DNA of 63,917 nt, counting the filler, from Folioceros fuciformis (taxonomy: Eukaryota), in the NCBI GenBank assembly GCA_049999805.1. It is 14 parts of 14 records of this genome, joined end to end, with 100 filler letters (N's around TTAATTAATTAA, not from the genome) between each part and the next. Parts side by side here need not be neighbours in the genome. Positions count along the whole stretch, not along the records: positions 1 to 7,037 come from JBNGIO010003267.1; 13 more parts are not named here. One strand, 5' to 3'. Below the pieces are notes generated by a model. The model was not told where the DNA came from. It made no database searches and worked only from the letters and a program-made list of their open reading frames with translations. Positions 2,131 through 47,647 of this stretch are shown here, piece after piece (the stretch's first letter is position 1; each line of letters starts with the position of its first letter). Both the position numbers and the translations under genes were made by a program.

Positions 2131-2277
2131 CGTAAACAACTTGGAAGAACTTAAAGGTTGGACTAGGATCGATAGATTGGAAGTCGGGATGGCTTGAAAG
2201 ATTGCAAGAATAAATTATTGAGACCATGTGGTCTAGTTGTAAGAATGTGGGGACACCCGTTGGTGGTGTCCCGTAAC

Positions 2278-2414
2278 TGTCTTTTTGGGTCACGACCCTC
2301 AGCGGCATCTATAGAAATCTAACGATTACTATCTGATGCCCTAATTAGATAATGTTATTTTTTTGTTTAATGCTGGATATATATATATTTAGTAAATACT
2401 TATTTCTACCTTTA
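2278..2414 (-). mobile_element. Short 3' LTR (~137 bp) of a minus-strand copia, with PPT AAGTGGGAG at 2415-2423
   Basis: Lies next to CTCCCACTT and shares the GG(T/A)CACGACCCT..AG...TCTATAG block with the LTR at 43460-43578. Boundaries are inferred. Confidence 0.6.
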
Positions 2415-2488
2415 CTCCCACTTAGCTAGCATTAAAAAACAAGTTACTTCTCGGTTACTTCACAGTCAGTCTGCAATGAGCTTTCTCC

Positions 2489-2747
2489 ATGATGTCTGAG
2501 CATGAGCTTGAGATCACAAAGTTACTTGCGCTGGTGACGTTCCTGGTTGCAGCCTTTTTGCACTGCTGCTCATGTTCCGTGTACAAGGAGTTCGCCAAGC
2601 TATATACTCTTGAGAGAGAACTGAAACTTGCACACTCAAAAATGGGGTCTCACTCAAGGAATGCCATGCCTCACAGCTAGGGGCCCAGTTCAGGTGTACT
2701 AGAATTGCTCCCACTGCATCTGTTGTGGATTTGTCGTGAAGTGCTAA
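2489..2747 (+). pseudogene. Antisense accessory ORF (family A) in the copia 3' region; small membrane protein, frameshifted
   Basis: Hydrophobic segment LLALVTFLVAAFL followed by TLERELKLAHSK. After a 1-nt shift it reads MGLTQGMPCL...NCSHCICCG. Homologous to the ORF starting at 43669. Confidence 0.65.
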
Positions 2748-2787
2748 CTAGGTGGGTAGTGCAGGTGCTATTCATCAAGATCCTTTA

Positions 2788-5185
2788 CTAACCCCATTGC
2801 CTTGGAAAAATTTTCATGTTTATCTCAGGGTAGAGGCTTTGTGAGAAGGTCTGCAATATTTTCATCGTGGACACAAACTGTAGATTAGCGTGCCCATTAG
2901 TGATTACTTGCCTGATGAAGTGATGTTTGATGTCTATATGCTTGGTTCGTGCGTGCATGACAGGGTTTTGGGCAAGAGCTATGGCAGGCTGATTATCACT
3001 CAACAGGAGTGTTAGTTTTGTCTGGGTCTCACCAAGGGATGCCAATAATTCTCTGCCATGGATGATGTCCTGTGCTGCTGTGGTTGCTGATATGTACTCT
3101 GCTTCAGTTGAGGATAGAGCTACAATTGCTTGCTTCTTGCTGTGCCATGCTATTATAGTTGCTTGGTGTTCGTCTTGACCTAGCATCAAACAATGAGCTG
3201 AAATGGAGCATCGACTGTCAGAGTCAGATGCCCAATCAGCATCACAGTAGCACGTTAGAAGCAGGTTTCGTGGTCGTTGAGTATACAAAAGTCCAAGATT
3301 GGGAGCGCCTCCAAGATAACGCATACATCTCTGTACAACATTCCAATATGCTGCAACATAATTTGAGAGAAATTGTGAGGTTACTCCAACAGCATGTGAC
3401 AGCTCATGATGTGTCCAGTTGCGGAAGTATATCAGCACTCCCCACTGCACGTCTATACGGTATTTTGTCCATTTGGATTCGCTCTTGTTCATTTTGTGGG
3501 CACTGCTCCAATGTGAGCTTCTCACCAGTGGCCATGGGTGTTGCTGCAGGTGTGGCGTTCTGCAGTCTAAAACGTGCAAGGACTTGATGCACAAACTGTG
3601 CTTGATGAATGAAAATGGTGTGCCTAGCCAAGTTCTGATGTATCTATATGCCTAAGAACCAGGTAAGTTGACCTAGATTTGTCATCGAGAACTCGGAGGT
3701 AAGTATAGACTTGACCTTGTTCATCAATGTAGGGTTGCTAGAGATTATTACAGCATCATCAACATATAACGCTAAGTATGCTACACCATTCTTGTCAGGT
3801 AGTTTATAGACGTTGGAGTCTGCATTGCTTTGGACAAAGCCACAATTTTTCAGGTAGGTGTCTATCCTTTGATACCATTCACGTGGTGATTGTTTTAACC
3901 CATACAGGGTTTTAATGAGTCTGCATACCTTCGTTAGGTGCTTGGTGTCAATGTACCCTTCTGGTTGGCGCATGTAAATTGTTTCTTCTAAGTTTCCATT
4001 GAGGAATGCTGTTTTTACATCCAAGTGCTGTAGAAGGAAGTCATGTTGAGCTGCGATGGCTAGCAAGGTGCGGATAGATGTTGCCCAAACCACAGGAGAA
4101 AAAGTTTCTGTGTAGTCCAGCCCCTCCACTTGACTGTATCCACGTGCCACAAGTCTTGCTTTAAATCTTGCAACTGTTCCATCAGCAGCGAGCTTTCGCT
4201 TGAACACCCACTTACAAGTGACTACCTTCCTTCTAGGTGGTAAGTCTTCCAGTACCCATGTCTTGTTGTCCATAATAGATTTGTATTCAGATTCAATTGC
4301 TTCAATCCATTTTTCTTTGTCTGGAGAATTGATGGCTTCCTGGAATGACTGGGGTTCCCCCGTATCAAGTGGGCTGATGTCGTCTTGAACTAGGAATGAA
4401 TGGTACGTCAGAGGAGGAGTGCTCCAGTCTACAGGGGACATAGTGTGCCGTCGTGTGCCAAGGTCCGTACCTCGCCTGAGTGCTGGAGCTTGAGCTGCTG
4501 GAGGTATGTTTACCACTTCGTCCTATGTCTCCTGCAAGCCATCTGAGCGAGTTTCTAATTCAGTATTGGCTTGCTGTGACTCACCCATTGATTCCTCATC
4601 ATCATCCTCAGGGAAATCACTAGGCTTCTCATGACTGACACTATCAAAAGGTGACATAGTGTGAATTGCTTGTGAGGAGGTGGAAGGTTGTGAGGACGTT
4701 GTTCTATGAGTTGTTACTGATGTGTAACCTTCATCGTTGCTGGTATCTGGATCAAACTGAAGGTTAGAATGTGCCTCATCTATTAAGGTAGGGTTTGAAG
4801 GGGGTGTCAGCAGTAACTGTTCATGGAATACTACACTCCGTGCATGTATTGTAGTTCTAGTTGCTGGATCTAGAAGCTTATAGCCCTTAATCCCTTCAGT
4901 GTAGCCTACAAAAACGTACTTCTTGGCTTTGTAATCTAACTTAACCCGTTGTTTTTCTGCCAAGTGTGCATAGGCTAGATATCCAAAGATCCTCAAGTGA
5001 TTGATGCGTGGTTTGTGACTGGTCCATCTCTCAAAAGGTGTGGCCCCACTGAAAGCCTTAGTAGGAAGTCTGTTTTGGCTGTAGGCTGCTGTGGCTACAG
5101 CTTCACCCCAATAGCCTCGAGAGAGACCAGAAAGTTTTAACATAGCCTTGGCTGCACACTGAAGATGCTTGTTATTCAACTCCGC
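2788..5185 (-). mobile_element. Ty1/copia pol (integrase C-terminus, RT, RNase H), frameshifted
   Basis: YWGEAVATAAY, KARLVARGY, LYGLKQSPREW, YVDD, DADW and HARTKHIDIKHHF motifs in INT-RT-RH order. Confidence 0.95.
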
Positions 5186-5392
5186 TGTTAAAGTTTTTGA
5201 GAGCAACGCATGCTCACTCAATTGCCAAAACAAAAAAGGATTCTTAAATTAAGCACTGATGTCTTATATACAAAAATGTCAAGAGTCCTAAACTTTAGGC
5301 TGCTAACAACAGCTACGTTTACTTATGTATATATAAATATATATATATATAACCCTGAGCCCAGATTATATATCGTAACACGCCCCCTTAAA
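5186..5392 (-). mobile_element. 3' LTR (5186-5380, TGTTA...TAACA) plus PPT of a copia inserted into the integrase of the preceding element
   Basis: 5-bp terminal inverted repeat, adjacent CGCCCCCTTA (PPT on the minus strand), and integrase similarity that stops at 5185. Confidence 0.8.
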
Positions 5393-16672: not shown

Positions 16673-17517
16673 TCCTGAACCAAGCAGGGACATATCACAA
16701 AAGAGGTCGTGAAGTGATAACCTGCCTCCTACAGGCGCACTCGATCTCATAGGAGCCTCTCTCTCCCTTACCTCATCTTTCTCTGGCTTGACAATTATTA
16801 TTTTAATAAGGCCACTAGCCTAGCTGACTATTATTAGCCACTTATTTAGACTTTCCTAGCACGTCTTGTTGCCAATATTGATGAGCTAGCCCTACAACCT
16901 ACGACCCTACCACCACAAGTATCCACCACCTATTAAACTATTCTCATACTTTGAAGGATGTCTGATCTTCAAGGATCTTGCGGACGCCGCGTCTTTCTTG
17001 CTGGATGGTTGCCCGCAAAGCCTTCCCCAACAACTATTCCCCTAGTGGCTGAGCTTGCCTCCATGGGAGAAGTATGAGTAGTGGGAGAAGAAAAGGGAAG
17101 AGGTGAGAAGAAGTGTGATCAGCAGCCGGAACCGGGCTTGAAATTGACAACTTATTCTGCAAAATTGGCTTTCAGCCGAAACAGTTCCACAGCCTTGGAA
17201 AATTGATCCTGAGGTGCTTGGACAAGGATGTCCGGGGAAGAAAACAAGTGAGAAGGAGCAAAGTCAAAAATTTTGGAATTAAATCCAAAAAAATAAGAGA
17301 AAATAGAAAAAGAAAATTAGGGAAGAAAAAAAATGGCAATATGGATACCATATATATACTAAAACATATAATTATATATATAAAATACATAGATATATGT
17401 ATACAGACCGTATACNNNNNNNNNNNNNNNNNNNNNNNNNNNNNNNNNNNNNNNNNNNNTTAATTAATTAANNNNNNNNNNNNNNNNNNNNNNNNNNNNN
17501 NNNNNNNNNNNNNNNTC

Positions 17518-18600
17518 ACACTCTGTATTCACCGACACAGTCAATCGGTTCTCAACCAGCATCTGATGAAGTGCCTTCTAGATCATCACAAAAGCCATCC
17601 AGTACAGATTTCCTCCGGCTCGAAGTCGTCCGATTATCGATGGTGCTGGCCAGAAATGCCTGAAGCTGGTCTATCCCTTGTATACGAGAAAGCCAGGGAT
17701 CTGTTAAGTAGCGAAGAGGTGCAGTCTGCTTTGCAGCAGTGTGGGCCCCGTCCGTCCATCGACGCAACGAGTGGCCCTTCAGCTGGAACAAGTCAGACAC
17801 AGGTACCGCCTATACTGAAGTTAGGGAAGGAAACTTCATATCCAAACGAAAGGGCGAAAGCAGGTCACCGGAGAGGGCTTGCAATGATAGTCAGCATGGA
17901 AGATGACAGGGATGGAGGACAGGTAGACAGAGGGCGACTTGAAGCACTCTTCGAGATGTTGAATTTTGATACAGATATCGTGGTGAACGGTCCTAAGGAA
18001 GGGAAATCAAGGTTGAAAGCCCTTCTCAGGGTCCCTCGCCTAGCAGAAGACGAGTGCTTTCTGTTTTGCGTGAACGCCCATGGTGGGACTGATGAAGACG
18101 GAAGACAGTATGTTTGCTCAGGTGATGCAGACAAGGCAGAGAAGCTTTATGTTGAAGAAGATATTCTGAAGCCCATCGCTGAATGCCAGTATTTGGCACA
18201 CAAGCCTAAGGTGGTTGTCATAAATGCTTGTCGAGGCACTGGCAGTCTGGTGAGACGCATGAAAGCACAGGGGTCGGGCCCCGCCGACCTTACCACTACC
18301 AACAAAGCCGAGGGGTCAGACGTTGAGGGAAGCCAGGGTCTCATCAAGAGAATTCGACCCTTGTACCAGGCGAAAGATTTTCTCATCGTCTTCTCTACCA
18401 GTCCTGGAGATTTATCCTTCAGAGATGTTAAGGAAGGCACAAACTTCATCATAGCTTTCATGGGAGCCATCCGTGAGCACTCTCGTACCGAAGATGTGGC
18501 GAGCATTCTAACAAGGGTGACTCGCGACGTCACGGAAATGCAGAACGTGCAGTGTCCCCAGGTCCTCACCACACTTACTAGAAAGCTATACTGGTCTTAA
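17518..18600 (+). CDS. 5'-truncated protein with a C-terminal caspase (peptidase C14A-like p20+p10) domain
   Basis: The frame is open to the contig edge. Motifs: GLAMIV, RDGGQVD...LFEMLNF, NAHG (His 18079-18081), KPKVVVINACRG (Cys 18229-18231), DFLIVFSTSPG..SFR....GTNFI, ILTRVTRDV and QCPQVLTTLTRKLYW. Confidence 0.9.
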   Translation, partial: TLCIHRHSQSVLNQHLMKCLLDHHKSHPVQISSGSKSSDYRWCWPEMPEAGLSLVYEKARDLLSSEEVQSALQQCGPRPSIDATSGPSAGTSQTQVPPILKLGKETSYPNERAKAGHRRGLAMIVSMEDDRDGGQVDRGRLEALFEMLNFDTDIVVNGPKEGKSRLKALLRVPRLAEDECFLFCVNAHGGTDEDGRQYVCSGDADKAEKLYVEEDILKPIAECQYLAHKPKVVVINACRGTGSLVRRMKAQGSGPADLTTTNKAEGSDVEGSQGLIKRIRPLYQAKDFLIVFSTSPGDLSFRDVKEGTNFIIAFMGAIREHSRTEDVASILTRVTRDVTEMQNVQCPQVLTTLTRKLYWS

Positions 18601-27951: not shown

Positions 27952-28822
27952 ATCCTCAACAAGGCACTTTAGTTGTACACCAAGAAAAGTACATATTTGA
28001 TGTGTTGCATAAGTACAAGCTCCTGGATGCTAAACCTGCCTTAACCCCTATGGAGGCCGGCAGTAAGCTACTGAAAGAGCAGTCACCTCAAACTGCTTTA
28101 GAGAAAGACCAGAAGATGAGCGTACCGTATTCTCAAGCTATTGGCTCCTTGATCTTTTGCTCTAACCATACGAAACCTGATATCTCCCTTCCACTGGGTA
28201 TGGCCTCTCAATTCTTGAAGGACCCTGAACAGATACATTGGTCAGCAGCAAAACGTATTTTGAGATACCTGAAAGGTACCAGTAAACATGGGAAACACTA
28301 CTCAAAACAAAAGTCATCCAAGGATTTTCTTACACTGACTGGCTATTGTGATGCTGATTGAGCATCAAACCCTGACACAAGAAAGTCGGTGTCGGCCTAT
28401 GTCTTCTTATTAGCTAGTGGCATGGTTACCTGGTCATCTAAGAAACAATCCACAGTATCTCTATCCTCTACAGAGGTAGAATACTCTGCTCTCACTCAAG
28501 CTGCAAAGGAGGGCATATGGTTGAGGAGGTCACTCAAGGATGTGGGACGAAGTAGACTCAACTAATGTTAATTTACTTCGACAATCAATCTACACTTACC
28601 CTGGCTCAGAACCCGGTCTTTCATGCACGGACAAAACATATTGAAGTTCAACACCACTTCATTCGTGATGCAGTCGCTTCACCTCAGATCTGTCTTGAGT
28701 ACATACCAACATATTCTAATGCAACTGACCTGCTCACTAAAGCCCATCCTAAGGTAAAGCACAACCTGTTTAAGGAGATGCTAGGAGTCTTAGGCTATAG
28801 CAGCATTGAAATTTCTGTTTGA
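27952..28822 (+). mobile_element. Ty1/copia RT-RNase H fragment
   Basis: HQEKYI, KRILRYLKGT, GYCDAD and HARTKHIEVQHHF. Confidence 0.92.
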
Positions 28823-29434
28823 GGAGTGACTGACTCTTGTGTGTTACTAGTAGGGTAATTATGCTCTTAGTTCTTAGGGAGTTTCAGATCTAGAGCTTGT
28901 GCCGTCAAAGAACAACGATCTCCTTCTTTCCCCCTTGCTTTTAGTATCCCGAGGTAGTTGGAGTTGAAATCATGTTATGGTTCCTCTTCAGTGTCCTCAT
29001 CTTTCGTTGCATGGGGTATCAATGCTTCCTCATTTGGTCTGTCCCTGGAAACTGCAAGTGACACACACGCACAATTAGTATCTCAGAGTAAGCCCTTTAG
29101 TCCTTCTCTAAACCACAGCAAGAGTGGGAGGCCTTAGAATTCTGAAGTTGCTTACCATAAAAGGATATAAAGTTCCCGCTAGAACCTCCCCACCTATACC
29201 ACTCCTCCCTCTTCATGGCTATTCTTGTCTCAGTACATATATACATCTCTGGAGTTAGAGGGTCGTTTACACTGTCACCATCGGAGGTCAACCTCACCGT
29301 CTTGTTAGGGTGGCCTCTTGGCAAGGAAAAAGTTNNNNNNNNNNNNNNNNNNNNNNNNNNNNNNNNNNNNNNNNNNNNTTAATTAATTAANNNNNNNNNN
29401 NNNNNNNNNNNNNNNNNNNNNNNNNNNNNNNNNN

Positions 29435-30440: not shown

Positions 30441-33400
30441 CACACTGGACTGCGACCGACCACCACACAAGGAACGGCTAGGTCTGTAGGGGAGCAAGAG
30501 TGCAATGTGCCGGTAGGACCCTTACAATAGTTGGCAAGCCGGACAACAAGTGTGGAAAGCACCTGTGAGGAGTTGCGCCATGCCCTGTTACTACAGGACC
30601 AACAACTGGGAAAAGTGGAATCGTCGCTGGCCCGGGTCAAATTGCAAGTAGGGGAGGGACAAGCTTGCCTAGAGAGGCAGCTCGAAGGTGTGCTCCAGTC
30701 CTTGGAACAGTCCTTGCCTCCCACGCCTAGTCCACCGGCTCCCCAACCTGGAGGATCTCGTCGTCCTGCGACACCCGTTGAAGGTACACTCAGCTCAAGA
30801 GCAACAACCCGCCCCTGCACACAATGGAGAGATAGGCGGAGGGGTAAGGGTTTCACCTATACCTTCCAGCAGCCGTGAGTTAAGTGTCGAGGAGGGAGAA
30901 ATGAAGAGACTTGCAATCGAGCTTACCCCTGTAGAAAAGGAGAACAAGGAGATTAAGGCCATGGTCAAACGACTACAACTCATGCGATACAAATATTGGG
31001 AGAAGCAAAGAGGCAAAGTGGGCAAAGAATCACCTGGAGGAGATGAACAAATGTTCAAGCCGAAGCCACATTTGGACCAAGAGCTACAACGCAAAATAAA
31101 AACGACCTTGTTCAACAGCCAAGCCAAGGATGCCCAGAGTGAGTACGATTGGCTCAACAAAATGGATAAATACCTTGCTGCGAGTAAGAAGGATGACCTC
31201 CAGAAAATCCAGTTTTGTGTGATGTCGTTGGACGGGTACGCGTATCGTTGGTGGCGGCAGCGGGAGAAACTTGTGGACCTCGGCAAGGAATCTCCATTGT
31301 ATTTGTGGGCAGTGTTCCATCAGCTCTTCTTGGAGAAATTTCTCCTTGTCAATCACAAGAAGGAATTGTACGTTCCACAAAATCTATCAACAAGGCACTA
31401 TACAAGAATACTACGACAAGTTTCTCCAGCTCACCCTTGACATGCCGAGACTTGATGAGGAACAGAAGATCAAAAAGTTTATTGATGGCCTGAAGTTTGA
31501 AATGCGAGCGGACGTCAACCAGACCAACCCTAACACCTTGGGGGAGGCTATGCGCACTGCTATCAACTACGGCACAAACAAATACAAGCACCTCGCACTA
31601 GGAGGCCCTTCCAAGCCCAAGTGGGCTAAGTTAGCTAACACTTCTGAGAAGAAACCCACTTTTAAAATTTTGACAGAGGTACTGAAGACAGAGTACACTA
31701 GCAAGAGAATGTGCTTCACCTGTTGGAGCTTGGATCATGGTTCGAAGAGTTGCCCCTTCCGACAGGACTTCATCGCTTGGTTGAAGGAGACGGGCAGGAC
31801 AACCAGAGAAAGCTCCCCTACCACAGCCCTTGCAAAGACCAATCACTCAGTCATGCTGGCAGAAGTGATGAAGCCAGCATCTGCAGTGACTATCACGTAC
31901 CAGGGGGGTGAAGGATGCAGACAGTCTATGACTTCCTGCTATCTGGAGCATGTTCCCATCAAGTTTGAAGTTGGACTGGAAGGTACGCGTGGGACTGGCT
32001 TAATGGACTCTAGTGCTAGCCACCACTACGTAGCCAAGGCGACTGCGGAGAAGGCAGGCCTGCACATCCATGAATCGAGTCAATATTCCACTGTAGTCAC
32101 AACACTAGATGGCAGAGATACCCACAAGGAACAGTGGACAGAAGTGGAAATCACGTTCCCAGGCGGGTACAAAGAAGTGCTCAAGCTGACAGTGATGCCA
32201 TCCCTGTGTCATGACTTGATAATTGGTAAACCCTGGCTGGCCAGGCATTCAGCAGCGGTAGAAGTGGACTGGCACAATAATGTAGTGACCCTCACCATTA
32301 GACAGCATAGATATGTAATGAGGGGAGAACAATACGTACCTGACAAGCAGCTGTTCGCTGTATCTACGTTCAATAAAGCTACTGCCATGGGCAGATTTCT
32401 GTATGTGGCTAAATTGAAGAGAGTGTTACCCTTGGAGGGCACCCCTGAGTCAAAGGCTGCAGAGGCCAAGGCGCATGACGACAGGCTACCCTCCACCTTT
32501 AAGGCACTCTTGGAGGAGTACGCTAATGTCTTTGCTGAACCTAGTGAGCTGCCTCCACACAGAACTGTAGATCACACCATTGATTTGCTGCCAGGACACA
32601 GGCCAGTCATTATCCAACCCTACCGTACCTCACCAGCAGAAAATGAGGAAATAAAAAAACAGGTGGATGAGTTCCTACAAAAGGGTTTTGTCAAGCCCTC
32701 AGTGTCCCCATTCGGAGCACCTGTCCTCCTTGTGGCCAAACCAGATGGGGGATGGAGGCTTTGTATTGACTACAGGGCCCTGAATAGGGCCACCATCCGG
32801 AATGTGTACCAGATGCCCAGGATAGATGAAATCCTGGATCTGCTCCATGGTGCCAAGCTGTTCACCAAAATCGATCTGAGATCTAGCTTCCACCAAATTC
32901 ACATCAAGGAGGGAGATGAGTACAAGACTGCCTTCCGCACTCGCCATGGGCATTTTGAGTTCAAGGTGATGCCCTTTGGCCTCACCAATGCCCCTGCCAC
33001 TTTCCAGTGCCTCATGCTGTAAATTCTTAGACCCCTGCTAGGGCATGGAGTAGAGGTCTTCTTAGATGATATTCTCATATACACTCGTGACCCAAATACA
33101 CACCACCAGCTGGTCAAGACAGTCCTAGAATTGCTACGCATCAATCAACTCAAGGCTAAGCGGAGCAAATGTGTCTTCATGCGAACAGAGTGTGACTACC
33201 TAGGACACATTATCAGTGCAGCAGGCATCAGTGTGGATCCCAGGAAAATCAAGGCAATCGTGGAGTGGCCTTTACCTCGGGATTTCACACAACTACGGAG
33301 CTTCCTTGGTATGGCAGGGTTTTACCGTCGTTTCATCTAGGACTTCAGGAGGATAGCAGTACCCCTTACAGATGCCCTTTGCTAGTCTGTCAGCCGACCC

Positions 33401-34113
33401 TTGCAACTCGGCCAGGAGGCGGTGCAAGCCTTTGACACCCTCAAGCAAGCCCTCAGCAATGCTCCCGTGCTCACAGTCGCTGACCCACACCAAGCATACA
33501 CCATTCACATGGATGCATCTGATTATGCTATGGGTGCCGTGTTGTCACATAACAACAGGGTCATTGCATATGAATCTAGGAAGTTACAAGGAGCCTAGCT
33601 CAACTATCCTGTCCATGATAAGGAAATGTTAGCGATCACACATGCCCTGAAAATCTGGAGGCATTACCTCCTCGGGCAAAAGGTGACATGCCACATAGAC
33701 CATCATTCGCTGCAACACTTTATCTCACAACCTAACCTCAATGCTAGGCAATGCAGGTGGGCAGAGTATCTTGCTGACTTCAATGTTGAGATCAAGTATG
33801 TTGCAGGCCCTTCCAATGTGGTGGCGGATGCCCTCAGCAGGTGTGCCTACTCCATCCTCACCACCCATTCCAAAACGATCCAGTTAGTCAAGTCAGAAAT
33901 TCCTGCAAACCCTGCTCTTCACCAACTCTACACACAACTCCTTGCTGATGCAGCTGCAGGTACCCCAACAGCCCTCACTCAAGAATACACCCTCAAGGAT
34001 GCTTGCATCTACAAGAAGGGGAGGCTCATGATACCCGCACACTTGAAGGAGTTGAAAATCTCAATCCTTCATGACAGTCACGATTCCCCCATCTCTGGTC
34101 ACCTTGGGATTGA
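30441..34113 (+). mobile_element. Ty3/gypsy gag-pol (Gag, protease, RT, RNase H, integrase start), degenerate, without visible LTRs
   Basis: [14 protein letters not shown] knuckle, [43 protein letters not shown] and HDSPISGHLG. Confidence 0.95.
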
Positions 34114-35458: not shown

Positions 35459-38400
35459 GGAGTTGACAGGCCTACCGTGCTGGACAGGATCGAAGGCGCC
35501 AGCAACTGGGGAAGCCTGGAAAGAATCATGTCCAGAAGGTTAGCAACTACCTCGAATGTGAGGACACCTGCAATCCGCGCACAGATCAGCCAGAAATATG
35601 AACGACTACATCCTACCTTTGGAGGGAGATTGACAGATTTCCAGCGGGAGTGAAGGAGAGAATCCACTGGAGGGAATCGGGGATCGGGTCTGCCGACGGG
35701 CGCGACATCTTGGACCCAATTCCCAAGACCGGCGCCTCACTCCCACCCAAGCACGAGTCGAGTCGAGGAGTCCTTGGAGATAGAAGAGGCGAGGAGGTGA
35801 TGCCGAGAGCTCTTGCACCTTCTCTAAACCCAGTTGGAGGTGGAGTTCCAACCGGCGGAAGGAAAAGCCGGGCCTGAACCCACGAGTATTCCTGCCGAAT
35901 ACTGCTCTAATCCAGGGACCAGAGGCGAGGGCGGCCTCGGAAACGAGGTGGAATCGGCCTAAACGGGCCCCAACCGCCTGTATCCACAAGAGGCCAGGAC
36001 CCACCAGAGGAGGAGTTAGCCAGAGAATCGGCTCTGCGGCAACTGGAAGGGAGGACCCACGGGGTTGAACATACCTGTGAGAAGTTGTGCAACTCCCTCT
36101 CCGGCCAAAGCCAACAACTTGAGAAGGTCAAGGAGTCGATCGCCAGGCTCGAAGCCTAAGTGGGGGAGGGGCAGACGCGGCTAGAAAGGCAGCTGGAGGG
36201 TGTGCTCCAGATGCTAGAGCAGACATCACCCCCAGGACCCTCGCCACTCTCACCCTGCCACAAGACATCTAGGCCCACTGAGTAAGCAGAGGGCACACAC
36301 CATTTGACTCCCTTGGCACCCTTGGGTCAGGCTCTTGAGGGTAGGAAGGAAGCAAGGGCCACGCCAACCATTCCTAGCGAACGTGACTTGAGCACAGTAG
36401 ACGAGGAACTGAAGAGGTTAGTTGTGGAACTCTTACCTGGCGAGAAGGACAACAAGGACCTCAAGGCCATGGTCAAGCGCCTATAGCTGATGAGGTATGA
36501 ACACTGGGAGAACCAGCGGGGAAGAACCAACAGCGAAACACAAGAGGGCGAGGACTACCAGTTCAAACCCAAGCCTTAGTTGGACAAGGAGCTCCACCAA
36601 AAAATCAAGACAACTAACTACCTTCGATGGAGGAGCCAAGGATGCCCAGAGCGTCCATGACTAGTTAGACAAAAATGACAAGTATCTTGCTGCTTCTGAC
36701 AAAGATGACCTGCAGAAGATCCAATTCTGTGTCATGTCACTGGAGGGGTGTGCATACCGTTGGTGGCGCTAGTGGGAGAAACAAGTTGACCTCGGCATGG
36801 AGTCCCCGATCTACTCTTGGCCAGTCTTCCAACAGATCTTCCTTCCCAGGAGCCAGTGAACCACCGAAAGGACCTGTATCAGTAGTTCAGGAACATCTTC
36901 CAACAAGGCACAATTCAAGAGTACTGCAAGTTCTTACAACTTACCTTGGACATGCCTAGGTTGGACGAGGAAAAGAAAATTGAGAAGTTCATCGATGCGT
37001 TGAGGTTCGAGATGCGAGCAGACGTGAACCAGACGAGCCCCACAACCCTAACAGAGGCCATGAAGGCGGCCATCAACTATGGCACCAACAAGTACAAGCA
37101 TCTTTCCTCAACAGGCCCTCCCCAGGCCAAGTGGAGCAAGTCTGCCAATGCCACAGAGAAGAAGCCCACCTTCAGAATCCTCACATAGGAAGAGAAGGAA
37201 GACTACAAGAAGGCCAGGAAGTGCTTTACCTGCGCAGCCTCCAGACATGGTTCGAAATCATGCCCATTCAAGAGGGACTTCATAAGCTGGCTGAAGGAGA
37301 CAGGCAAGTCCACTAGGAGCGGCGTCTACCCAGCACTTGTCAAGAGTGGACACGCCATAACCCTCACAGAGGTTAGTGAACCCACTCTAGCTGCGGCCAT
37401 CATTGATCCTGCAAGTAAACTCGGATCAGTTGCTGCATGCCAATTAGCTCACATACCTATCAAACTTGAGGTGTCGTTGGCCGGAGTACGGGCCACATGG
37501 CTGCTTGACTCTGGGGCCAGTCATCATTATGTGTCCAAGGTAGCTGTAGAACGAGCTGGCCTGTCAATCAAGGACACAGGTCAGGTCTCCATAGTGGTCA
37601 CAGCCCTAGGCGAGAAGGAGACAAGTAGAGAACAGTGGACAGAAGCTGAGCTTACCTTTCCAGGAGGGTTCAAGGAGGTTCTCAAGCTGACCGTGATGCC
37701 CTCGCTCTGCCACAACCTGATCATAGGCAAGCCTTGGTTAGCCAGTCACTCGGATCAGCTAGAGGTAGACTGGAAGAAAAACGTTGTTCACCTCCTGCAA
37801 GACCATCAAACATATGTCATGCAGGGGGAACAGTACGTCCTGGACAAGCAACTGTTTGCTATCTCTACTCTCAATAAAGCAACTGCCATGGGTAGATTCC
37901 TGTACATAGCAAAGCTCAAGAAGGTGCTTCTCTTAGAAGGCACTATGGAGTCAAGGGCCGCAGAAGCAAAGGTCCACGAGGACCAGCTCCCACAGCCCAT
38001 GAAGGACATGCTCTAGGAGTATCAGGATGTGTTTGCTGAACCCACGGAGCTCCCTCCTCGAAGAACCGTGGACCATGCCATTGAGTTGCTGCCAGGCCAC
38101 AAACCGGTTAGTATCTAGCCCTACAGGACATCTACAATGGAAAACAAAGAGATCAAAAAACAGGTTGATGAGTTCTTACAGAAGGGTTTTGTACAACCTT
38201 CTGTGTCACCCTTTGGTGCTCCAGTCCTCCTGGTTGCCAAACCAGATGGAGGATGGCGGCTGTGCATAGACTATCAAGGGCTCAATCAAGCCACAGCGAG
38301 AAACGTCTACCAAATGCCAAGGATCGACGAAATCCTCAACCAGTTGCATGGAGCCAAGCTGTTCACCAAGATTGATCTCAGATCTGGCTTCCACCAAATC

Positions 38401-39192
38401 CGGATTAGGTTTGAAGATGAACACAAAACAGCCTTTCGAACTTGACATGGCCATTTCGAATTCAGGGTAATGCCGTTTGGTCTTACCAATGCCCCTGCCA
38501 CCTTCCAGTGTCTCATGCAGGAAGTGCTGCGACCCCTGCTGAGACATGGCGTTGAAGTCTTCCTGGATGACATTCTCATCTACACCCCTGACCTCGAAAC
38601 ACATGTCCAGTTGATTAGGAAGGTGTTGGACTTGCTACGGGCCAACCCACTGTTCGGCAAGAGAAGCAAGTGTGTCTTCATGAGAGAGAAGTGTGAATAC
38701 CTAGGACATGTGATCAGTGTAGAGGGCATCCAGGTTGACACACGTAAGGTCAGCGCAGTGATGAACTGGCCCTTGCCACAGGACATAACCCAACTCAGAG
38801 GGTTCCTGGGTATGGCCAGCTTCTACAAACGCTTTATCAAGGGATTCAGCAGGATCGCTGTTCCCCTGACGGATGCCCTCCGACATTCCACCAACAAGCC
38901 CATCCAGTTGGGAGCCGAGGCCATCGTAGCTTTTGAGTAGCTAAAGCAGGCCCTTAGCTCGGCGCCAGTACTGGCAGTGGCAAATCCTCACATGCCATAC
39001 ACCATCCACATAGACGTGTCAGATTATGTCATAGGGGCAGTTCTGTCCCAGCTAGGAAGGGCAATTGCCTACGAAAGCAAGAAGTTGCAAGGAGCACAAC
39101 TAAACTACCCAGTGCATGATAAGGAGATGTTGGTCATTACACATGCCATGAAGGTATGACGACATTACCTTCTGGGGCAGAAAGTGGTGTGT
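35459..39192 (+). mobile_element. Second copy of the Ty3/gypsy family seen at 30441-34113, degenerate
   Basis: Colinear Gag/PR/RT/RH peptides ([23 protein letters not shown]). The left boundary is approximate. Confidence 0.92.
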
Positions 39193-39293: not shown

Positions 39294-42183
39294 TGTCAAT
39301 AGGATCAACTCCAGTCTATGTGCAAGTGTAGGAGAGGAGAGGAGAGAAGAGAGGGTGGTATTGGTGGTCACAACCAAAAACAATACACATCACCACTGTC
39401 TTACTATGGAGGTCCAAGGTCTCCATTTAAGTAGTACATTTAGGGCTACACAACTTCCAGGTTCAATATGGGATAATCTACACTATCCTAAGTTCATTAA
39501 TAACTAGAACTAGTCTAGTATGAACCCAACTGGGATAACTAACACCACATGAGTTTAGCTCATATAGAGCTCGATAACTCAACACTCCCCCTCGAGCTCA
39601 ACATAGCATCTGTACGCCTAACATAGCTCAGAATTTCTTCAGCTTCTCTGCTCCCATTGGCTTAGTAAATATATCGGCTATCTGCTCGTCTGTATTGACA
39701 TACACAAGATCAATAGCTCCAGATAAAATCCTTTCGCGAAGAAAATGATAATGTATTTCAATGTGTTTTGTCCTGGCATGAAACACTGGGTTTCGCGCCA
39801 ACTGTATGCTGCTAAGATTGTCACAGTAGATAACAACCTTGTCATTGACCTGCAATCCAAAATCTCGGAGTAACTTACAAATCCAAGTCACTTCACACGC
39901 TGCCATTGCTGCGCCTCTGTATTCAGCTTCTGTACTAGACAAAGCCACTGTAGGCTGCTTCTTGCTACTCCATGTACTCCATGTAAACTGACTTTGCAAT
40001 CCCACTTTATAGTTCAAATCTGGTCGGGATAGAGTGAGATATATCAAGCTACCCACAATCTTCCTGTACATTGTTGGATCTTCAAGTGCTTCACCATCAT
40101 GAGCACTGAGCTTTAGATTTTGATCCAAAGGAATCGAGATTGGCTTGCACTCAACCATACCATACTTAGTTAGTACATCCGACGCATACTTCCGCTGTGA
40201 CAGCCAAATGCCTGTGTTGGTTCGTATAATTTCAATGCCCAAAAAGAACCTCAGTTCACCTAGGTCCGCCATCTTGAATTCTTGTTGTAGAAGTTCCTTG
40301 ATCTGCTCCACTTGATCCAACTGATTACCTCCAATGATTAGATCATCCACATAAATGGTCACAAAGACCAGTCGTTTTGTACTTTTGCACACATACAACG
40401 AATGATCCGCATCTGCCATGTTGAATCCGATGTGAATCAGATGCTGAGCAAGACGCTCATGCCAAGCCCTCGGGGCTTGCTTCAGTCCGTACAACGTTTT
40501 TTTCAGCTTGCACACATGATTTGGATGATCCAAATCCTCATATCCTGGTGGCTGGTCCATGTATACTTCTTCCAGCAATTCTCCATGTAAAAACGCATTC
40601 TTCACATCCATATGATGTAGGACCCAACCTTTCGATGCCGCTAGTGCGATCACGGTTCGAATTGTTGCCATTTTGGCAACTGGGTTGAACGTCTCCTCAA
40701 AATCTATTCCATATGTCTGGGCATATCCCTTGGCCACAAGCCTTGCCTTGTACCTGTTGATACTACCATCTGCGTTGTGTTTGACCTTGTACACCCATTT
40801 GCAACCTATTGGTTTCTTGCCTTCAGGTAGTTGTACTAGGTCCCATGTTACATTCTGATTTAACGCATTCATTTCTTCATCCATAGCATGTTCCCACTTT
40901 GTGTCTCCAATAGCTTCTTCAAAGCTTCTTGGTTCCACATCCTGTACAACCTTTGCCATATAGGCATGGTGCCTAGCTACATAGCTATCATAGGTCAACC
41001 GCTGTATTGGAACCTTCTGCCTTCCAGATCTCCGTGGGATTGAACCACTTCCAGGGGCTGATTGAACCTCTTTTGCACCAGGTGTTTCGATTTTCGGTAC
41101 ACCGAATTCCTCATCCAAGCTCTGCTCAGAGTCGCTTGAATCATCCGCACCTGCACTTAGGTCTGGTATCTTTGAATCCTGGACTTTTTCCTTCCCTTTG
41201 CGAGACACAGCTGTGGAGCTCGTAGGACTCACACTACCTCGCAACCTGCCACTCCATGGATTCTGAACATTTGTCGAGTTTGATGATGCTTGCGGTCCAC
41301 TCAACACTTGTGATTGTTGACCTGCATTGCTTGTTACCTCAGTTTCAAGCACATCAGCTACACTACTTCCTTGTACTTCAAAGTACCAGCTACCCATTTC
41401 ATCAAAGACTACGTCTCTGCTTACTCTCATAGTCCGTGTACTGGGATTGTAGCACCTGTATCCTTTCTGTGTAACAGAATACCCAATGAAGACACACTTT
41501 TCTGCTTTTGGATCAAGCTTAGTCCGTAACTCATCCGGAATATGGACATAAGCAATGCAACCAAATACCTTTAAGTGTGACAAGTCAGGTTTCTTCCCTG
41601 TGAACTTCTCCTCCGGTGTTACACTGTGCACCGCTGCTGTGGGAGTTCTGTTCATGATGTACACTGCTGTGCTTACAGCTTCAGCCCAATAGTAGTGAGG
41701 CATCTTCTTCTCTGTCATCAATGCTCTCGCCACTTCTGCTATGTGCCTGTTCTTGCGCTCTGCAACTCCATTTTGTTGTGGCGTATAACGACATGAGTAC
41801 TGCCGTTGAATGCCCTGTTCTGATAAGAATTTGCTGAACTCTCTGGAGAAGTACTCTCCCCCTCCATCAGATCTTAGGCATTTGATGTGCCTACCTGTCT
41901 GCTTCTCAACCATCGCCTTGAAAGTATGAAAATGAGTGATCACTTCACTTTTTTCTTTCATGAAATAGACCCACACCTTCCTTGTGTGGTCGTCAATGAA
42001 GGTCACATAGTACTTGCAGCCTCCGATTGATGCAGTCTGTGTAGGACCCCATACATCTGAATGCACAACATCCAACACATATCTGCTGACATGTTTGTCA
42101 TGGGGGAACGCATTCCTAGGCTGTTTCCCAAGTTGACATGCTTCACATATACCTTGCAGTCCATTTTCTGTAAGCTTGGGTAT
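39294..42183 (-). mobile_element. Ty1/copia: 3' LTR (39294-39584), PPT (39585-39592) and open INT-RT-RH frame with an internal deletion
   Basis: 816-aa ORF with VHSDVWGP, LRSDGGGEY and YVDD; TG...CA LTR next to CTCCCCCT. Confidence 0.95.
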
Positions 42184-43003
42184 NNNNNNNNNNNNNNNNN
42201 NNNNNNNNNNNNNNNNNNNNNNNNNNNTTAATTAATTAANNNNNNNNNNNNNNNNNNNNNNNNNNNNNNNNNNNNNNNNNNNNCGACGAGGAGCGCAAAG
42301 AGAAGTACAACAAGGCCATGGCCTTCTTGCAAGAGCAGGAACATGCCTTCAAGTCGGGCCAACTTGGAAAAGGACGGAAGAAGAAACGAAGGTGAAGACA
42401 TTTTCCAGCACAAGCGCAGCCCAGTGACTACTTTCTAGGTCGATGGATGGCCTTGTCGTTTAGGCCTCTTGCGCCACAGCCGTTCCAGCAGTGTGTACCT
42501 GATTCCATAGGGGAGTGGCTGAAACTTGCGCTATTCTTGAACGGTCCGTTACAGGTCGGTCTGGCCATCCGAAGACCCGAGGCGTAGCACAGTGCCCGCC
42601 CCCAATCGGATGGTGATGGCACCCGTACAAGCACCCTGTGTTTCTGCTGCCGTAGAATTTCTGCAATGTCCCCAGCCTCGGTAAATCTCAGAATAATGCT
42701 GCACTGTTCATACGCTTTTCTGCCATGGCCAGAATGTGTTCCGAGCTTGCGAGGGAAGACCTCCTGTGTGCCGTGGCCATAATTCAGAGTAGTGGTGACC
42801 CCGGTACATGCGTTACCGTGCAGTGCTGTGTTCTCCGTCCTTCGGGTTCCGTTCCAGGCCTCCTGGCATTTCCGCTTCGACTGTTAAAATAAGCTGCTTA
42901 TGAACTTGGCTGGCCACCTGACGCTCCTTCGTGCGTCCCGCAGGCAAGTAAGGCGGGAATCGACAAAGTGAAGCTCTAAGATTCGCATCCCACTTTCTGC
43001 ATT

Positions 43004-43195: not shown

Positions 43196-43459
43196 GCAGG
43201 AGCGGTGTAGGGCTTCATCTATCTGACGTGGTGGCATTTTTCGACAACAGTGTCGATCGCATTACAAACACAATTTTTTGGACAACATCGAGCACGCGGC
43301 AGATCAGCTTCAAGGGAAGTAGTGAAGCGGATTGCAGGATCGACCGAGGAGGAGATGGAAGCAAGAAGAGAAGAAAAGAAAGAATGCTTGATTGAGAGCC
43401 GTGTGGCCTTCAAAAAGGCGTGCGGGCACCTGTTCGTGGTGACCCGTGAACGTGGCGTT

Positions 43460-44391
43460 TAATATTTAGGACACGACCCTTAGACACGTCTATAGCTATC
43501 CATCGTTTGGACTTAATTAATAAACACTGGCTATTTATATAATTATGCGACCCTAACCCTAACTCTTTTATATTTATACTCCCACTTAGACAGTTGTTTA
43601 TTCATTGTTCACCTTTGATTCCGTTAAGGTTACCACAATCTCTGTTAGGTTTCCCCGAGCTATGGGTGATGGCTAGCCTCGAGCTGGAGACATCAGTCCT
43701 CCTTGGTCTTTGCCTGGTGTTGGTGGCGATGCTCCTGCGGCGCAAGCTACCTTGGAGGAGGAGCTCGAGATGGTGCACTCCAAGCTCCGAATTGCGTAGG
43801 GACTGCCCCAACTTGTTCCTGATGCTCCGTTCAAGTACCTGCCAAATTGCATAGACAAATTTATCTGTGCCGGAAGCGAGTTCACTGAGGACGGGCGGCT
43901 GATTGTCAGATTTGGTGAGGATCCTGCTACTTAGTTGCAGTCCATTCAGGCTGAATCCTTGCACCCATAGCTGACCCTCTGCTGCTGTGCACAGAACCCT
44001 GGTGGCGCTGCTCCTCGGTGATGCCCACTCGGCGTTTCTTGCCTGGATAGGAAACTGCAGCCCTTTTTGTTTTAGCTGTCCAAGTGGTTGTATCCACTAT
44101 GCATCTGGGTTGATTACGAGGCCCATTGCCCTAGCAAATTTGTCATGCTTCTCTCTTGGCAGGGCCTTGGTGAGAATATTAGCCACATTCTCTTCTGTAG
44201 GGACATACTGCAAATTTACATGCCCCTCAACTACCACTTGGCGAATAAAGTGATGCTTAATTTCAATATGCTTTGTCCTTGCATGCATTACTGGATTTTG
44301 TGCTAATGCAATCGCTGACTGGTTGTCACTAAGTAGAAGTGTGGGTTCAAGTTGTTGCTCCTCTAATGATGCAAGGAGCTGTCTTGCATGG
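43460..44391 (-). mobile_element. Ty1/copia 3' end: RNase H C-terminus, 3' region, PPT (43579-43587) and short LTR (~43460-43578)
   Basis: HARTKHIEIKHHF and CTCCCACTT; related to the element at 2278-5185. Confidence 0.85.
43669..43934 (+). pseudogene. Antisense accessory ORF (family A), frameshifted
   Basis: MASLELETSVLLGLCLVLVAMLLRR, then in a shifted frame TLEEELEMVHSKLRIA*GLPQLVPDAPFKYLPNCIDKFICAG. Confidence 0.65.
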
Positions 44392-44491: not shown

Positions 44492-47039
44492 GCTGATAAT
44501 CGGAGGGTGTATCAAATAATCCTCCAGGTGAAACCACTTCCTCCATGTCGAAATCCCCAAACACTATTGATTCAGACTCATAACTGTCTGGAGGTCGGAC
44601 AGGAGGCTTTGATGGAGGTGTGATGGGAATCTGATTGAGTGCTGGAGCAAGTGGTACAACCGGATTAATTTGTGGTGCCGGTGCTGCAGCTGCTGAGGCT
44701 GCAGGAGGGAGAAATGTCTCCTCTGAGTCATCGTCTGACTCATCTAGTGAGTCAAGAATAAATGCTCCCACTGAGTCCTGAGACTCCACACCTTCTACGA
44801 ATATGACATCCCTGGAATGAGTTACTCTGCGGGTATGTCTGTCAATCACCTTGTATCCTTTGATGCCCTCGGTGAAGCCAATAAATATGCAGGGTGTAGA
44901 CTTGGGTTCAAACTTCTTCCGAAGGTCCTTGTGTATATGAACATATACTGGTGAGCCAAAAACCCGCATGTTGGAGATATCTGGCTTTACTCCAGTCCAC
45001 ACCTCATAAGGTGTCTTGTCCTTGACAGCAGCATGCTCAATACGATTTTGTATGTACATAGCATAGGCTACGGCTTCTGCCCAGTAGCATTTAGGAAGTT
45101 TTGCATAGCTTAGCATGCTGGAGGCTGACGTTTCGAGTGCCTTGTTTTTATTCTCGGCCACTCCATTTTGCTGAGGCGTCCGTATAGTGGTAAGCTGCCT
45201 AGCAATGCCATGGGCTTGGCAAAAAGCTTGAAACTCTCCAGATACGTATTCTCCCCCATTATCTGAGCGCAGTGCCTTCAACTTCTGCTCAGTTTGATTT
45301 TCTGACCATATTTTGTACTCCATGAAGCAGGGCAGGGTATCTGACTTGTGCTTGAGTAGATAAACCACAGTGAATCTGGAATAATCATCAACGAAGGACA
45401 AGAAATAGAGCTTGCCGCCAAGAGATGTGGGAAGAGGCCCACAGACATCACTGTGAACAAGTCCAAGTACCCTCGTAGCTCGTTCAGCCTGCTCAGTTGG
45501 AAATGCAGACCTTTGATGCTTGCCTATGACACAAGAATTGCAGACTCCAAAATCAGATAAGGTATCCAACTTCAATCCTTTGACCAACTGTTTTTGATGC
45601 ATTCTTACTAACTTCTGGAAATTCAAGTGTACAAGTCTTAAATGCCACAAATAGGTCAAGGAAGGCTGCGACATGTGAGCTGAGTGCGTAGCTGCATTGG
45701 CATGAACTTTCTTAACATCAAGATGGTACAACTCGTCTGCTCTCAGTCCTCCTGTGGCCATCAGCCTTCCATCATGTGTCTCCACTACACACTTGCTGTC
45801 ACCAAAACAGATGTAGCAGCCAGATTCATCAATTTTCCGTACCGAAACCAGGTTCTTGGCTAGGCCTGGGACGTACAAGACATCTGGAATTTCCAGATGC
45901 TCATCAGGTTCAAGGTCGAGCTGAATTGTACCTTGTCCTTCAATTTTGTGTGTGGAATCATCACCCAAGCATACAAACCTTTCGCCTTGCACAGGTTGCA
46001 GATTTGTGAAGTATGACTGATAGGGAGTCATGTGCTGAGAGGCACCGGAGTCAATATACCATACATGCTCATCGCTTGATGCGTAACATGTGACGACAAG
46101 TGCTGAGATGGTGCCCAAACAAGGTACTTCTTTCGCCTTATTCTGGACACTTGCTGCAAACGCTCGTGAATACTTCTTCATAGTGACTGCGAGGTTCCCT
46201 CCTGAATGGCTGCTATTTGACTCATTTGCCAGGCGCTTCCTACAGGTTTCCCAAGAGTGGTTGGGAATACCACAATAGCCGCATGGTGGCTTAGGTCTGC
46301 TAGCATTAAAAGGTTGTGGTTGAAATGGGAAGCCTCGACCACGTCCTCTTCCTCTGACAAAAGGTCTGCCTCTGCCCCTGCCTCTTACAGGCTTATTCAT
46401 GAAGAGGGCTTTGTCTCCTGCTGATATAGAGGACGATGCCATCTTGCGGCGATTCTCCTCTGTGAGCATGGTCGATATGACACGGTTCACAATAATTGCT
46501 GCCACATTTTGCAGGGACTGGACTACATTGGTCCAACTTTCAGGGAGCTGAGATAATAAGAGGACTGCCATAATTTCCTCCTCAAGTTTGAGGCCAAGAG
46601 CCTGAAGCTTTGTTTGCCAACTCCTCCAAGTGAGTACAAACTCAGCAACTTTATCAGACTCTAACATTTTCAGTGTCACAAAAGACTTGAGAGTATGAGT
46701 TTTCAGCATTAGATCTGAAGCGTCGTACACTTCCAGTAATTGTTGCCATAATGCTGCAGCTGATGTAATGGAGCCCATCAACGTGGCAATGTGTGAGCTC
46801 TTGACGCTCATAGTTAATGAGCTTCTTGCTTGTTGATTTGCAGCCTTCCATGCTGCAATTTCATCAGTTGTTGCTGTGTTAGGCGGTTCAGGTATTAGGA
46901 CCGCTGCACCAACATACTCCCAGAGATTGCGTGACTTCAGCAGCTCCTCCATTCGAAACTTCCAGAGATTGAAGTTCTCCCCATAAAACTTGTCCTCCTT
47001 AGCCAAGGAGACTGGAGTGGAAGGTGATTGTGCTGCCAT
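44492..47039 (-). mobile_element. Ty1/copia gag-protease-integrase, uninterrupted ORF running to the contig end
   Basis: CGYCGIPNHSWETC, WYIDSGAS, LWHLRLVH, VHSDVCGP and LRSDNGGEY. Confidence 0.95.
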
Positions 47040-47053
47040 GACTCTAGGAAGGA

Positions 47054-47347
47054 CTAGAGGCTCAAAGGAATAGGATGGAACCTAGCTGCGCACGAAGAGA
47101 GTGAGTCAACTGGACTCTCTACTTCTAATGAGACTTGGAGGTGAACAGACAAAGCAAAACAGAATTCGGAATGAATTTTATCCACTACATGACTTGCATA
47201 TGCATAGATGTAGGGGTAGCTAGGTATGATTGGTTGCTGTCTAAAGAGAATGTCTAGTGCTGATAAGACCTGATTAAAGACAAAGTTTGGTGATGCAGGA
47301 AGGCTTATGACAAAAGTCGACATAGAAGGGGGAGACATCTTCAGCAC
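47054..47347 (-). CDS. 97-aa sense ORF ending 14 nt upstream of the gag ATG
   Basis: Open frame in the leader of an otherwise intact element. No homolog recognised. Confidence 0.35.
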   Translation of the reverse strand: MLKMSPPSMSTFVISLPASPNFVFNQVLSALDILFRQQPIIPSYPYIYAYASHVVDKIHSEFCFALSVHLQVSLEVESPVDSLSSCAARFHPIPLSL

Positions 47348-47647
47348 TCAGCACTAATAAGAAATGTCGATTTGGCTCCAGTCATACCCGTCAGCGGCTT
47401 CAAAACCTTGTACCAGGTTAGTGGCCATAAGCTCCAAAACAATGCACAGTCTAATCCAAACCTGTTGCCACCTGTTTCCAGGTGCAAGGGTTTCTTGATA
47501 CTCCCTCTCGGACGTTCTGAAGTAGGCTCGAGTAGCCTCTTCACGTANNNNNNNNNNNNNNNNNNNNNNNNNNNNNNNNNNNNNNNNNNNNTTAATTAAT
47601 TAANNNNNNNNNNNNNNNNNNNNNNNNNNNNNNNNNNNNNNNNNNNN

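Follow-up and report, generated by a model that had tools for sequence, protein, structure and literature searches.

An antisense membrane-protein gene, split by a predicted intron, between pol and the polypurine tract of copia retrotransposons in Folioceros fuciformis

Can a copia retrotransposon bear a gene of its own on the strand opposite to pol, and does this gene encode a membrane protein? The question is raised by a stretch of Folioceros fuciformis DNA—here the window, 63,917 nucleotides of contigs joined by 13 spacers, taken from an assembly (GCA_049999805.1) of 87 Mb in 7240 contigs. Two diverged minus-strand copia elements in this window, which lie on separate contigs joined by spacers and need not be neighbours in the genome, each show a plus-strand ATG just inside the edge of the 3′ long terminal repeat (LTR). 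A preliminary description of the window proposed that a conserved membrane protein is encoded there, antisense to the element, between pol and the polypurine tract (PPT). The core of this proposal stands: a copia clade bears an antisense gene for a membrane protein, which is conserved and was under purifying selection in the past, and it is nearly certain that this is a real, selected coding gene. About 70 copia copies, both window elements among them, form a clade with this gene between pol and PPT, which we term family A. The proposed single continuous open reading frame (ORF) does not describe family A, where the gene is divided into two exons by a predicted intron and is intact in only 1 of 65 copies.

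Both elements could be delineated at their 3′ ends. Element 1 (2152–5248, minus strand) ends with a 3′ LTR at 2152–2414 with TA...TA ends, whose far end was placed from the junctions between LTR and primer binding site (PBS) of relatives; no 5′ LTR partner was found within the window. The terminal PPT (2415–2423, minus) follows, and then pol (2768–5248, minus), whose stop lies at 2768–2770. This pol retains integrase SH3 and reverse transcriptase (RT) regions along with that of ribonuclease H (RNase H), matches PF07727 and, upstream of it, PF25597 in Pfam, bears frameshifts and stops, and is truncated at its 5′ side by another copia. In between, on the plus strand, the exon 1 remnant (2489–2707) contains the transmembrane (TM) helix, the Cys-x2 region, and a further helix; it is in frame to about 2644 and then meets a frameshift, a deletion, and a stop. 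An intron remnant (2703–2733, plus), recognized by DNA alignment to the related loci L053 and L040, keeps an internal PPT-like motif at 2708–2717, with the branch point, the acceptor, and exon 2 all deleted. Element 2 (43320–44391, minus) comprises a 3′ LTR (43320–43578, minus; far end predicted), a terminal PPT (43579–43587, minus), and the RNase H end of pol (44097–44391, minus; stop at 44097–44099), which reaches the contig end. Its antisense gene is more complete: exon 1 (43669–43914, plus) with a frame-shifting deletion after the TM helix and one stop, a predicted GT-AG intron of 80 nt in phase 1 with a CTGAC branch-point motif (43915–43994, plus), and exon 2 (43995–44050, plus), open to its stop. 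Since only about 47 nt lie between the stops of exon 2 and pol, the two RNAs probably overlap.

The peptides quoted in the preliminary description are present in the sequence, and the plus-strand ATGs at 2489/2492 and 43669 lie 75 and 91 nt inside the LTR edge, as stated there. The start given as 2476 has to be moved to 2489/2492, as its ATG belongs to another frame. The likeness between the two elements exceeds chance for the TM block (score 39, 1/2001 shuffles) and the helix block (score 45, 1/5001 shuffles). A third peptide block, chosen post hoc, also beats its shuffles (score 21, 1/5001), yet part of this match is accidental, because the DNA of element 1 from about 2703 aligns to the intron of L053 and L040, and because the I-C matched in the window copy of element 2 reads M-Y in its sister copies. 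Correcting one frameshift in each element, as had been suggested, does not suffice. Element 1 additionally bears a stop, and deletions have taken exon 2, the greater part of the intron, and the C-terminal portion of exon 1; in element 2, the frame-shifting deletion, which its two sister copies (94% identical) share, is joined by a stop. The gene of element 2 was also thought to end at 43934, which falls within the predicted intron, and the second exon extends it to 44050.

How widely the gene is distributed was assessed by a genome search with RNase H, in which 150 of 2123 candidates were scored (upper tier, 67). The 3′ regions of nearly all upper-tier elements and of a sample of lower-tier ones were fetched, and the region after pol was profile-searched in 205 loci, some places being fetched twice. 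Family A was matched in 85 loci, a homologous family C in 43, and a family B in 32—all 160 matches antisense and 0 sense. After removal of duplicates, 150 places were left, with 42 A, 30 B, 28 C-type, and 50 without a match. An RT-RNase H phylogeny, which the preliminary description had called for, unites both window elements in one clade (support 1.0 in FastTree and 97 in SH-aLRT); its rows were anchored on a clade A query, with 105 of the 150 places sufficiently covered and thinned further for the SH-aLRT tree. Clade A (support 97–100) and the C-type clades are separate from all named database matches in the tree. The best outside matches to the RT-RNase H of these elements are ≤49% identical, so the lineage appears to be poorly sampled. 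Its membership of Ty1/copia is evident from an integrase that precedes RT, an RVT_2-type RT, and a single gag-pol. Further diverged members of the A/C superfamily occur in other copia subclades (L164/L166, L093/L208/L213, L207, and L167). Two RT proteins from Logan (P0001 and P0016) fall among those subclades, and related elements may thus exist in other organisms.

The gene is positioned tail-to-tail with pol, in antisense orientation only, with its ATG roughly 70–125 nt inside the 3′ LTR edge, and its product comprises about 115–126 residues with one N-terminal hydrophobic helix. In family A, about 97 codons are followed by a GT-AG intron of 74–100 nt and about 18 further codons, and the DNA alignment accordingly displays a codon-structured block, a variable segment of 74–100 nt, and a second short block. 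Among 33 non-redundant groups (7 of 67 aligned rows, in which the region is deleted or does not align, were left out), the intron starts with GT in 25 and ends with AG in 32, and read-through is blocked in 27. A branch-point motif lies 14–40 nt from the intron end in 31 of the 33 groups (shuffles: mean 6.3, maximum 16). The host offers a comparison in its nuclear rbcS family (8 matches; both genes inspected encode a transit peptide and contain two short introns), whose introns are similar in size and likewise end in GCAG. Independent support for the two-exon structure comes from family C, whose coding sequence for 124–126 residues has no intron and is contiguous at the junction: it runs R-Y, one residue, P-F-W-R, which is the register predicted for phase-1-spliced A. 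A exon 1 and the family C protein can be aligned (hhalign 88.6%, E 2.6e-6), with the RNase H of the two families only about 46% identical, and L207, from a further group, has the same contiguous register. Hence, the intron is very probably real, and we strongly infer from these patterns that family A transcripts are spliced. Two young subfamilies (L020–L023 with L067, and L063/L064) have an open or nearly open exon 1 with an altered donor or acceptor; in L063/L064, the 84-nt intron reads through in frame into exon 2.

That the exons are coding is most apparent from the pattern of substitutions. For A exon 1, 24 groups at 85% identity were compared (L030, L072, and L047, which do not align, were left out), giving nonsynonymous and synonymous differences (pN and pS) of 0.283 and 0.756 over codons 30–97, the latter being saturated. 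Divergence at the three codon positions is 0.34/0.25/0.59 in exon 1 and 0.39/0.33/0.57 in exon 2, as opposed to 0.49/0.45/0.48 in the intron. Stops amount to 12 in 1483 codons of A exon 1 in the antisense frame versus 50 in 1470 codons of the mirror sense frame. The ratio of nonsynonymous to synonymous substitution rates (dN/dS), which had been set in advance as the test, came out low in the antisense frame: 0.25 in A (92 pairs at 70–85% identity) and 0.23 in C (105 pairs), from unsaturated pairs of natural copies that are not independent of each other. The out-of-phase frames have a dN/dS near or above 1.

This selected gene has been lost many times. Breaks common to 3 copies and to 4 copies must have been inherited through transposition, and some single-copy frameshifts may be assembly errors. 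Per 100 codons, the antisense gene carries 0.86 breaks and RT-RNase H 0.45 (22 loci, deletions not counted). Two elements (L127 and L128) have an open gag-pol of 1523 and 1553 codons with an antisense gene that is deleted or frameshifted, and the gene is therefore dispensable in cis. Family C, with 6 full-length open copies in 24 loci examined and a full element with 98.7% identical LTRs, is better preserved than family A.

The predicted membrane anchor was found in all 14 N-termini examined: a helix with a hydropathy of 1.9–2.9 within the first 30 residues. The charge is 0 to −2 before this helix and 0 to +4 after it. According to the positive-inside rule, the basic flank of a TM helix faces the cytosol, and the conserved domain is thus predicted to be cytosolic, with a very short N-terminus outside. 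AlphaFold models agree on the order helix, helix, loop, and beta-hairpin, and a homodimer prediction was uninformative (score 0.01). Relatives outside these elements are scarce. Profile A1 found none among 5164 candidates and profile A3 only two Logan proteins, with 91% and 69% identity to the family C protein—in both cases among near-length proteins—and these two possibly stem from the same or a close organism and would then not be independent. A profile scan of 1.84 billion representatives gave 2 matches, both rejected as tandem-repeat artefacts. The ESM Atlas gave no usable match for one A and one B protein, Pfam nothing above threshold for the antisense proteins, and PDB sequences as well as metagenome and viral contigs 0 matches each. 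Foldseek at E≤0.001 returned no match for the low-confidence models, either in PDB (A exon-1 model) or in BFVD (C model). The best VIA match (Z 4.4) covers the first helix only, which does not make the fold new.

The same position is occupied by a different protein in family B, a sister clade (L086–L092 and L133–L160; 48 genome matches). Its antisense protein—up to about 270 residues in exon 1—has a Cys/His motif, a coiled coil, and a Trp/Gly-rich C-terminal domain, followed by a phase-1 intron and an acidic exon 2, and it is under selection as well (pN 0.234 and pS 0.759). A pattern that does not demand GT located 21 of the 30 B places, and all 21 copies have the GT donor. Neither Pfam nor Atlas yielded a match for the family B protein, and homology between A and B or C and B was not detected by hhalign (0.1–0.3%); the intron phase and a short exon end of the form G-x-hydrophobic...Y are all that A and B have in common. 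A family B remnant is also found in the window (28975–29334, minus), behind the plus-strand copia RNase H at 28568–28792, with the end of exon 1, a GT donor at 29155, a 104-nt intron, and a short exon 2.

Several of our observations weigh against a membrane-protein gene that is still at work. The mirror sense frame also has a low dN/dS (0.40 in A and 0.34 in C), and only its surplus of stops rules it out. Within groups, near-identical pairs reach a dN/dS of about 0.43–0.46, and the TM region is weakly constrained and poorly aligned (0.63). Of 65 clade A places, only a single one is intact. In 6, exon 1 is open and a splice site is changed; 33 are broken; 22 lack the greater part of exon 1; and 3 are truncated at contig ends. 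In 3 more places, the whole region is lost. With 1 intact copy in 65 and a within-group dN/dS of 0.46, the gene may no longer do anything in clade A. Family B fills the same slot with a protein without a TM segment (maximum hydropathy 1.38), and membrane anchoring is thus not required by the slot. The structure models are of low confidence (pTM 0.37 and 0.33). Finally, transcript, splicing, and protein are predictions from the DNA sequence, and any tie of the protein to Gag or to a particular membrane is supposition.

What might such a gene do? Overall, we find it rather likely that it is an old accessory gene of a copia superclade. From the 70–125 nt spacing of its ATG, a promoter in antisense orientation, situated in integrated copies at the 3′ LTR edge or close to it, would give rise to a spliced mRNA. 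The host spliceosome would cut the intron from this mRNA and not from the genomic RNA; the intron would survive retrotransposition, as its GT-AG signals are antisense to the genomic RNA that is packaged. The product would be a single-pass, membrane-anchored protein with its helix and beta-hairpin domain in the cytosol. It might act in trans, as an adaptor by which Gag/RNA particles or pre-integration complexes are kept at the nuclear envelope or an endomembrane, and subfamilies would keep losing the gene while still transposing. Action in trans without a need in cis would reconcile long-term selection with constant loss. This tether or adaptor role is a tentative assignment, possible rather than probable, and ranks ahead of self-restraint and movement, which are considered next.

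The gene might instead restrain its own element and control copy number, with the protein sequestering Gag or particles at membranes or an antisense RNA over the pol end triggering silencing; loss would then be a short-term gain. The probable overlap of the two RNAs, the loss of the gene in young subfamilies with open pol, and its higher break rate compared with RT-RNase H would fit, and regulatory antisense RNA is discussed in PMC7264820. Action at the RNA level, however, leaves codon-level selection unexplained, and family C keeps its full-length open copies, including relatives of the full element with near-identical LTRs, which makes restraint an unlikely explanation. A minimal env-like or movement-type protein for crossing membranes or plasmodesmata, comparable to small single-pass viral movement proteins, is suggested by the small size, the single TM helix, the Cys residues, and the beta-hairpin. 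SIRE, Athila, and Bagy2 do have env-like ORFs in this region, for which a role in movement was proposed (PMC7264820 and PMC2829016). Nevertheless, the gene is antisense and its product has neither an ectodomain nor a C-terminal TM segment, and its predicted topology is that of a cytosolic domain; we consider this role more doubtful still. Searches with the low-confidence models gave no significant match with which to weigh the analogy to TGB3/p6-like movement proteins.

Two further explanations can be largely set aside. A captured host gene, carried with its intron as a passenger, would account for the host-like size and signals of the intron and for the frequent decay. But none of the fetched genome matches looked like a free-standing host gene; most have a copia RNase H on the opposite strand, and among 12 loci checked separately, most of them without RNase H nearby, a PPT lies just upstream in 9 and in none of the other 3. 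Moreover, a dN/dS of about 0.25 among elements indicates selection while inside them, and this passenger scenario is largely refuted and very improbable. The peptide likeness might also be a shadow, cast by cis-acting signals in DNA or RNA that are conserved in the stretch from pol to PPT. A PPT-like motif and AT-rich LTR motifs do exist there, and the third block is partly such a shadow. Three-base periodicity and avoidance of stops are, however, limited to the two exons and absent from the intron, and protein homology persists between A and C despite their distant RNase H. Unless the alignments are wrong, this idea is refuted, and we give it next to no credence. For the accessory gene itself, one may think further of a whole copia superclade, in a poorly sampled lineage of green plants, whose genomes are complex in the manner of retroviruses—an additional 5′ ORF, then gag-pol, then an antisense slot at the 3′ side for at least two unrelated proteins—and in which the intron would house a second functional PPT without constraining the protein, the membrane protein would tether in trans, and most elements would be cheats on a few intact copies. 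As a whole, this picture seems unlikely to hold.

The internal tract deserves mention in this respect. Of 33 family A groups, 19 have a PPT-like motif within the intron (mean after shuffling, 0.2), and many B introns contain it as well; several A subfamilies are without it. In family C, it directly follows the stop of the antisense gene, in a 3′ untranslated region where a possible intron would have conserved branch-like and PPT-like motifs but no conserved donor. The terminal tract reads AAGTGGGAG (A) or AAGTGGGGG (C), usually with one internal copy. In each clade, the internal tract matches the terminal PPT: AGTGGGAG in A and AGTGGGGG in 14 C loci showing both—a match that is suggestive only, because it corresponds to one coupled change on the tree. 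Sireviruses, Athila4, Calypso, Ty1, and HIV-1 are also described as having extra PPTs, whose roles are unclear (PMC2829016).

LTR pairs in L127, L132, and L231 are accompanied by a PBS of the TGGTATCAGAGC type. We take TGGTATCAGAGC to be the primer site for plant initiator tRNA-Met; together with the rbcS family, it marks the host as a green plant, probably a seed-free streptophyte. LTRs usually have TG...CA ends; those of clades A and C start with TA in 39 of 47 and with TG in 7 of 47, and end with TA before the PBS. An AT-rich motif is conserved 25–50 nt from the LTR edge. A TATA box for the antisense gene was considered there and rejected, as TATAWAW is not strand-specific (antisense in 16/47 and sense in 15/47 LTRs) and reads equally as the sense TATA box of the element itself. 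For L020, no RNA run containing it was listed; an RNA run (X1) covered only 46 nt of the family C locus L173, outside the gene, and is uninformative.

Several observations concern the remainder of these elements and of the window. A separate sense ORF of 170–243 codons with an M-P-R start lies between PBS and gag in L127, L128, L229, and L230 (A), L131 (B), and L231 and L232 (C). It is open even where the antisense gene is lost; its two C copies are 51% identical and have weak coiled-coil matches in Pfam, and the A and B copies cannot be aligned to them. In the window, a PBS at 48251 is followed by a short ORF with an M-P start (47721–48260, minus), upstream of the gag-integrase on the neighboring contig 44492–47547. 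This gag-integrase contig is not supported as the 5′ half of element 2, having no blastn match to the region upstream of the 94% identical sister copy and a protein identity of 34–48%. On contigs C4399, C6308, C5790, and C6177, element ends are duplicated head-to-tail (100% identical in C4399 and C6308), and represent either tandem elements sharing an LTR or repeats collapsed in the assembly. Also in the window are a copia with the PPT directly after the pol stop and no extra gene (39613–42231), two Ty3/gypsy copies that are 72–75% identical (31223–33685 and 36634–39186), and an O-methyltransferase ORF (PF01596; 13168–13989, minus) amid retrotransposons. An uninterrupted caspase-domain ORF at 17464–18600 (plus; PF00656, E 3e-27) has an ACRG-type active-site motif. 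In green plants, metacaspases are expected and a caspase domain is unusual; horizontal transfer or contamination could explain this ORF.

How does the gene compare with known systems? Antisense genes at this position have been found in Grande of maize, RIRE2 of rice, and PvRetro13 of bean, which are gypsy elements. Such ORFs (aORF-3R), as described for Grande (gene23), RIRE2, Retand, PvRetro13, and Boty, show features of nuclear or DNA-binding proteins and, in the text covered, include no TM example (PMC7264820). Retand, from Silene, and Boty are gypsy elements; the Retand region measures 2.9–6.6 kb, and the products described for this class of ORF include TRP28 and SMC-like proteins (PMC7264820 and PMC11963269), with TRP28 in 97% of Retand clusters (PMC11963269). 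The word "intron" is absent from the main texts of both papers. As in Grande, RIRE2, Retand, and PvRetro13, the ORF described here is antisense to pol, lies before the 3′ LTR, is conserved family-wide, and has no host homologue. In contrast to them, it is carried by copia, in a region of about 0.5–0.6 kb, and encodes about 120 residues with an N-terminal TM segment and without a Pfam match, with an intron in A; nor is it intact in most copies (A 1/65; C 6/24). PF04195 (TRP28), the hallmark of Retand along with its Ty3/gypsy carrier, was absent from 12 A members and 2 C proteins. The brtn gene of Boty, a Ty3/gypsy element of Botrytis/Sclerotinia, is likewise antisense, downstream of pol, and outside flowering plants, but its carrier is a fungal gypsy element (as cited in PMC7264820 and PMC8365987).

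Among copia elements, SIRE and other Sireviruses likewise carry an additional ORF and further PPT copies in the stretch from pol to the 3′ LTR. Their env-like ORF (eORF-3′F) is in sense and long, and the PPT octamer AGGGGGAG occurs in about four copies (PMC6317226 and PMC2829016). Here, by contrast, the ORF is antisense and short, all profile matches being antisense, and in place of several identical AGGGGGAG tracts there is a single internal PPT-like copy, in family A inside the intron. Unlike in env-like proteins, with their sense ORF, ectodomain, and C-terminal TM segment, the single TM segment is within the first about 30 residues. Osser, Bryco, and Gymco-II use a half-tRNA-Met PBS (PMC6317226), whereas the PBS here is of the full-tRNA 3′-end type. 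The arrangement also resembles intron-based retrotransposition reporters, in which an antisense gene with an intron is placed inside a retrotransposon; the reporter intron, however, is sense to the element RNA and lost on transposition, and the present one is antisense to it and kept (PMC12786077). For copia, the covered text of PMC6317226 names only the sense eORF of SIRE as characteristic and applies a cut-off of 250 codons, which would miss a gene of this size—hence, similar genes may be common and unannotated. The literature searched, with few subscription papers and apart from the supplements of PMC6317226 (orientation of 582 copia eORFs), reported no antisense TM or spliced ORF in copia, and a 2020 review asks for a search for antisense and spliced transcripts (PMC7264820).

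Taken together, this is a real, well-supported accessory gene family, new in its carrier, its protein, and its intron within a known arrangement. The question of antisense extra genes in LTR retrotransposons is acknowledged to be open; it is now extended to a copia clade, and a membrane-anchored protein family without database relatives is added to it. The predicted intron illustrates how a retroelement can keep an intron of the spliceosomal type. As a natural comparison, this lineage furthermore offers homologues with and without the intron, an unrelated second protein at this position, and numerous losses that occurred independently.

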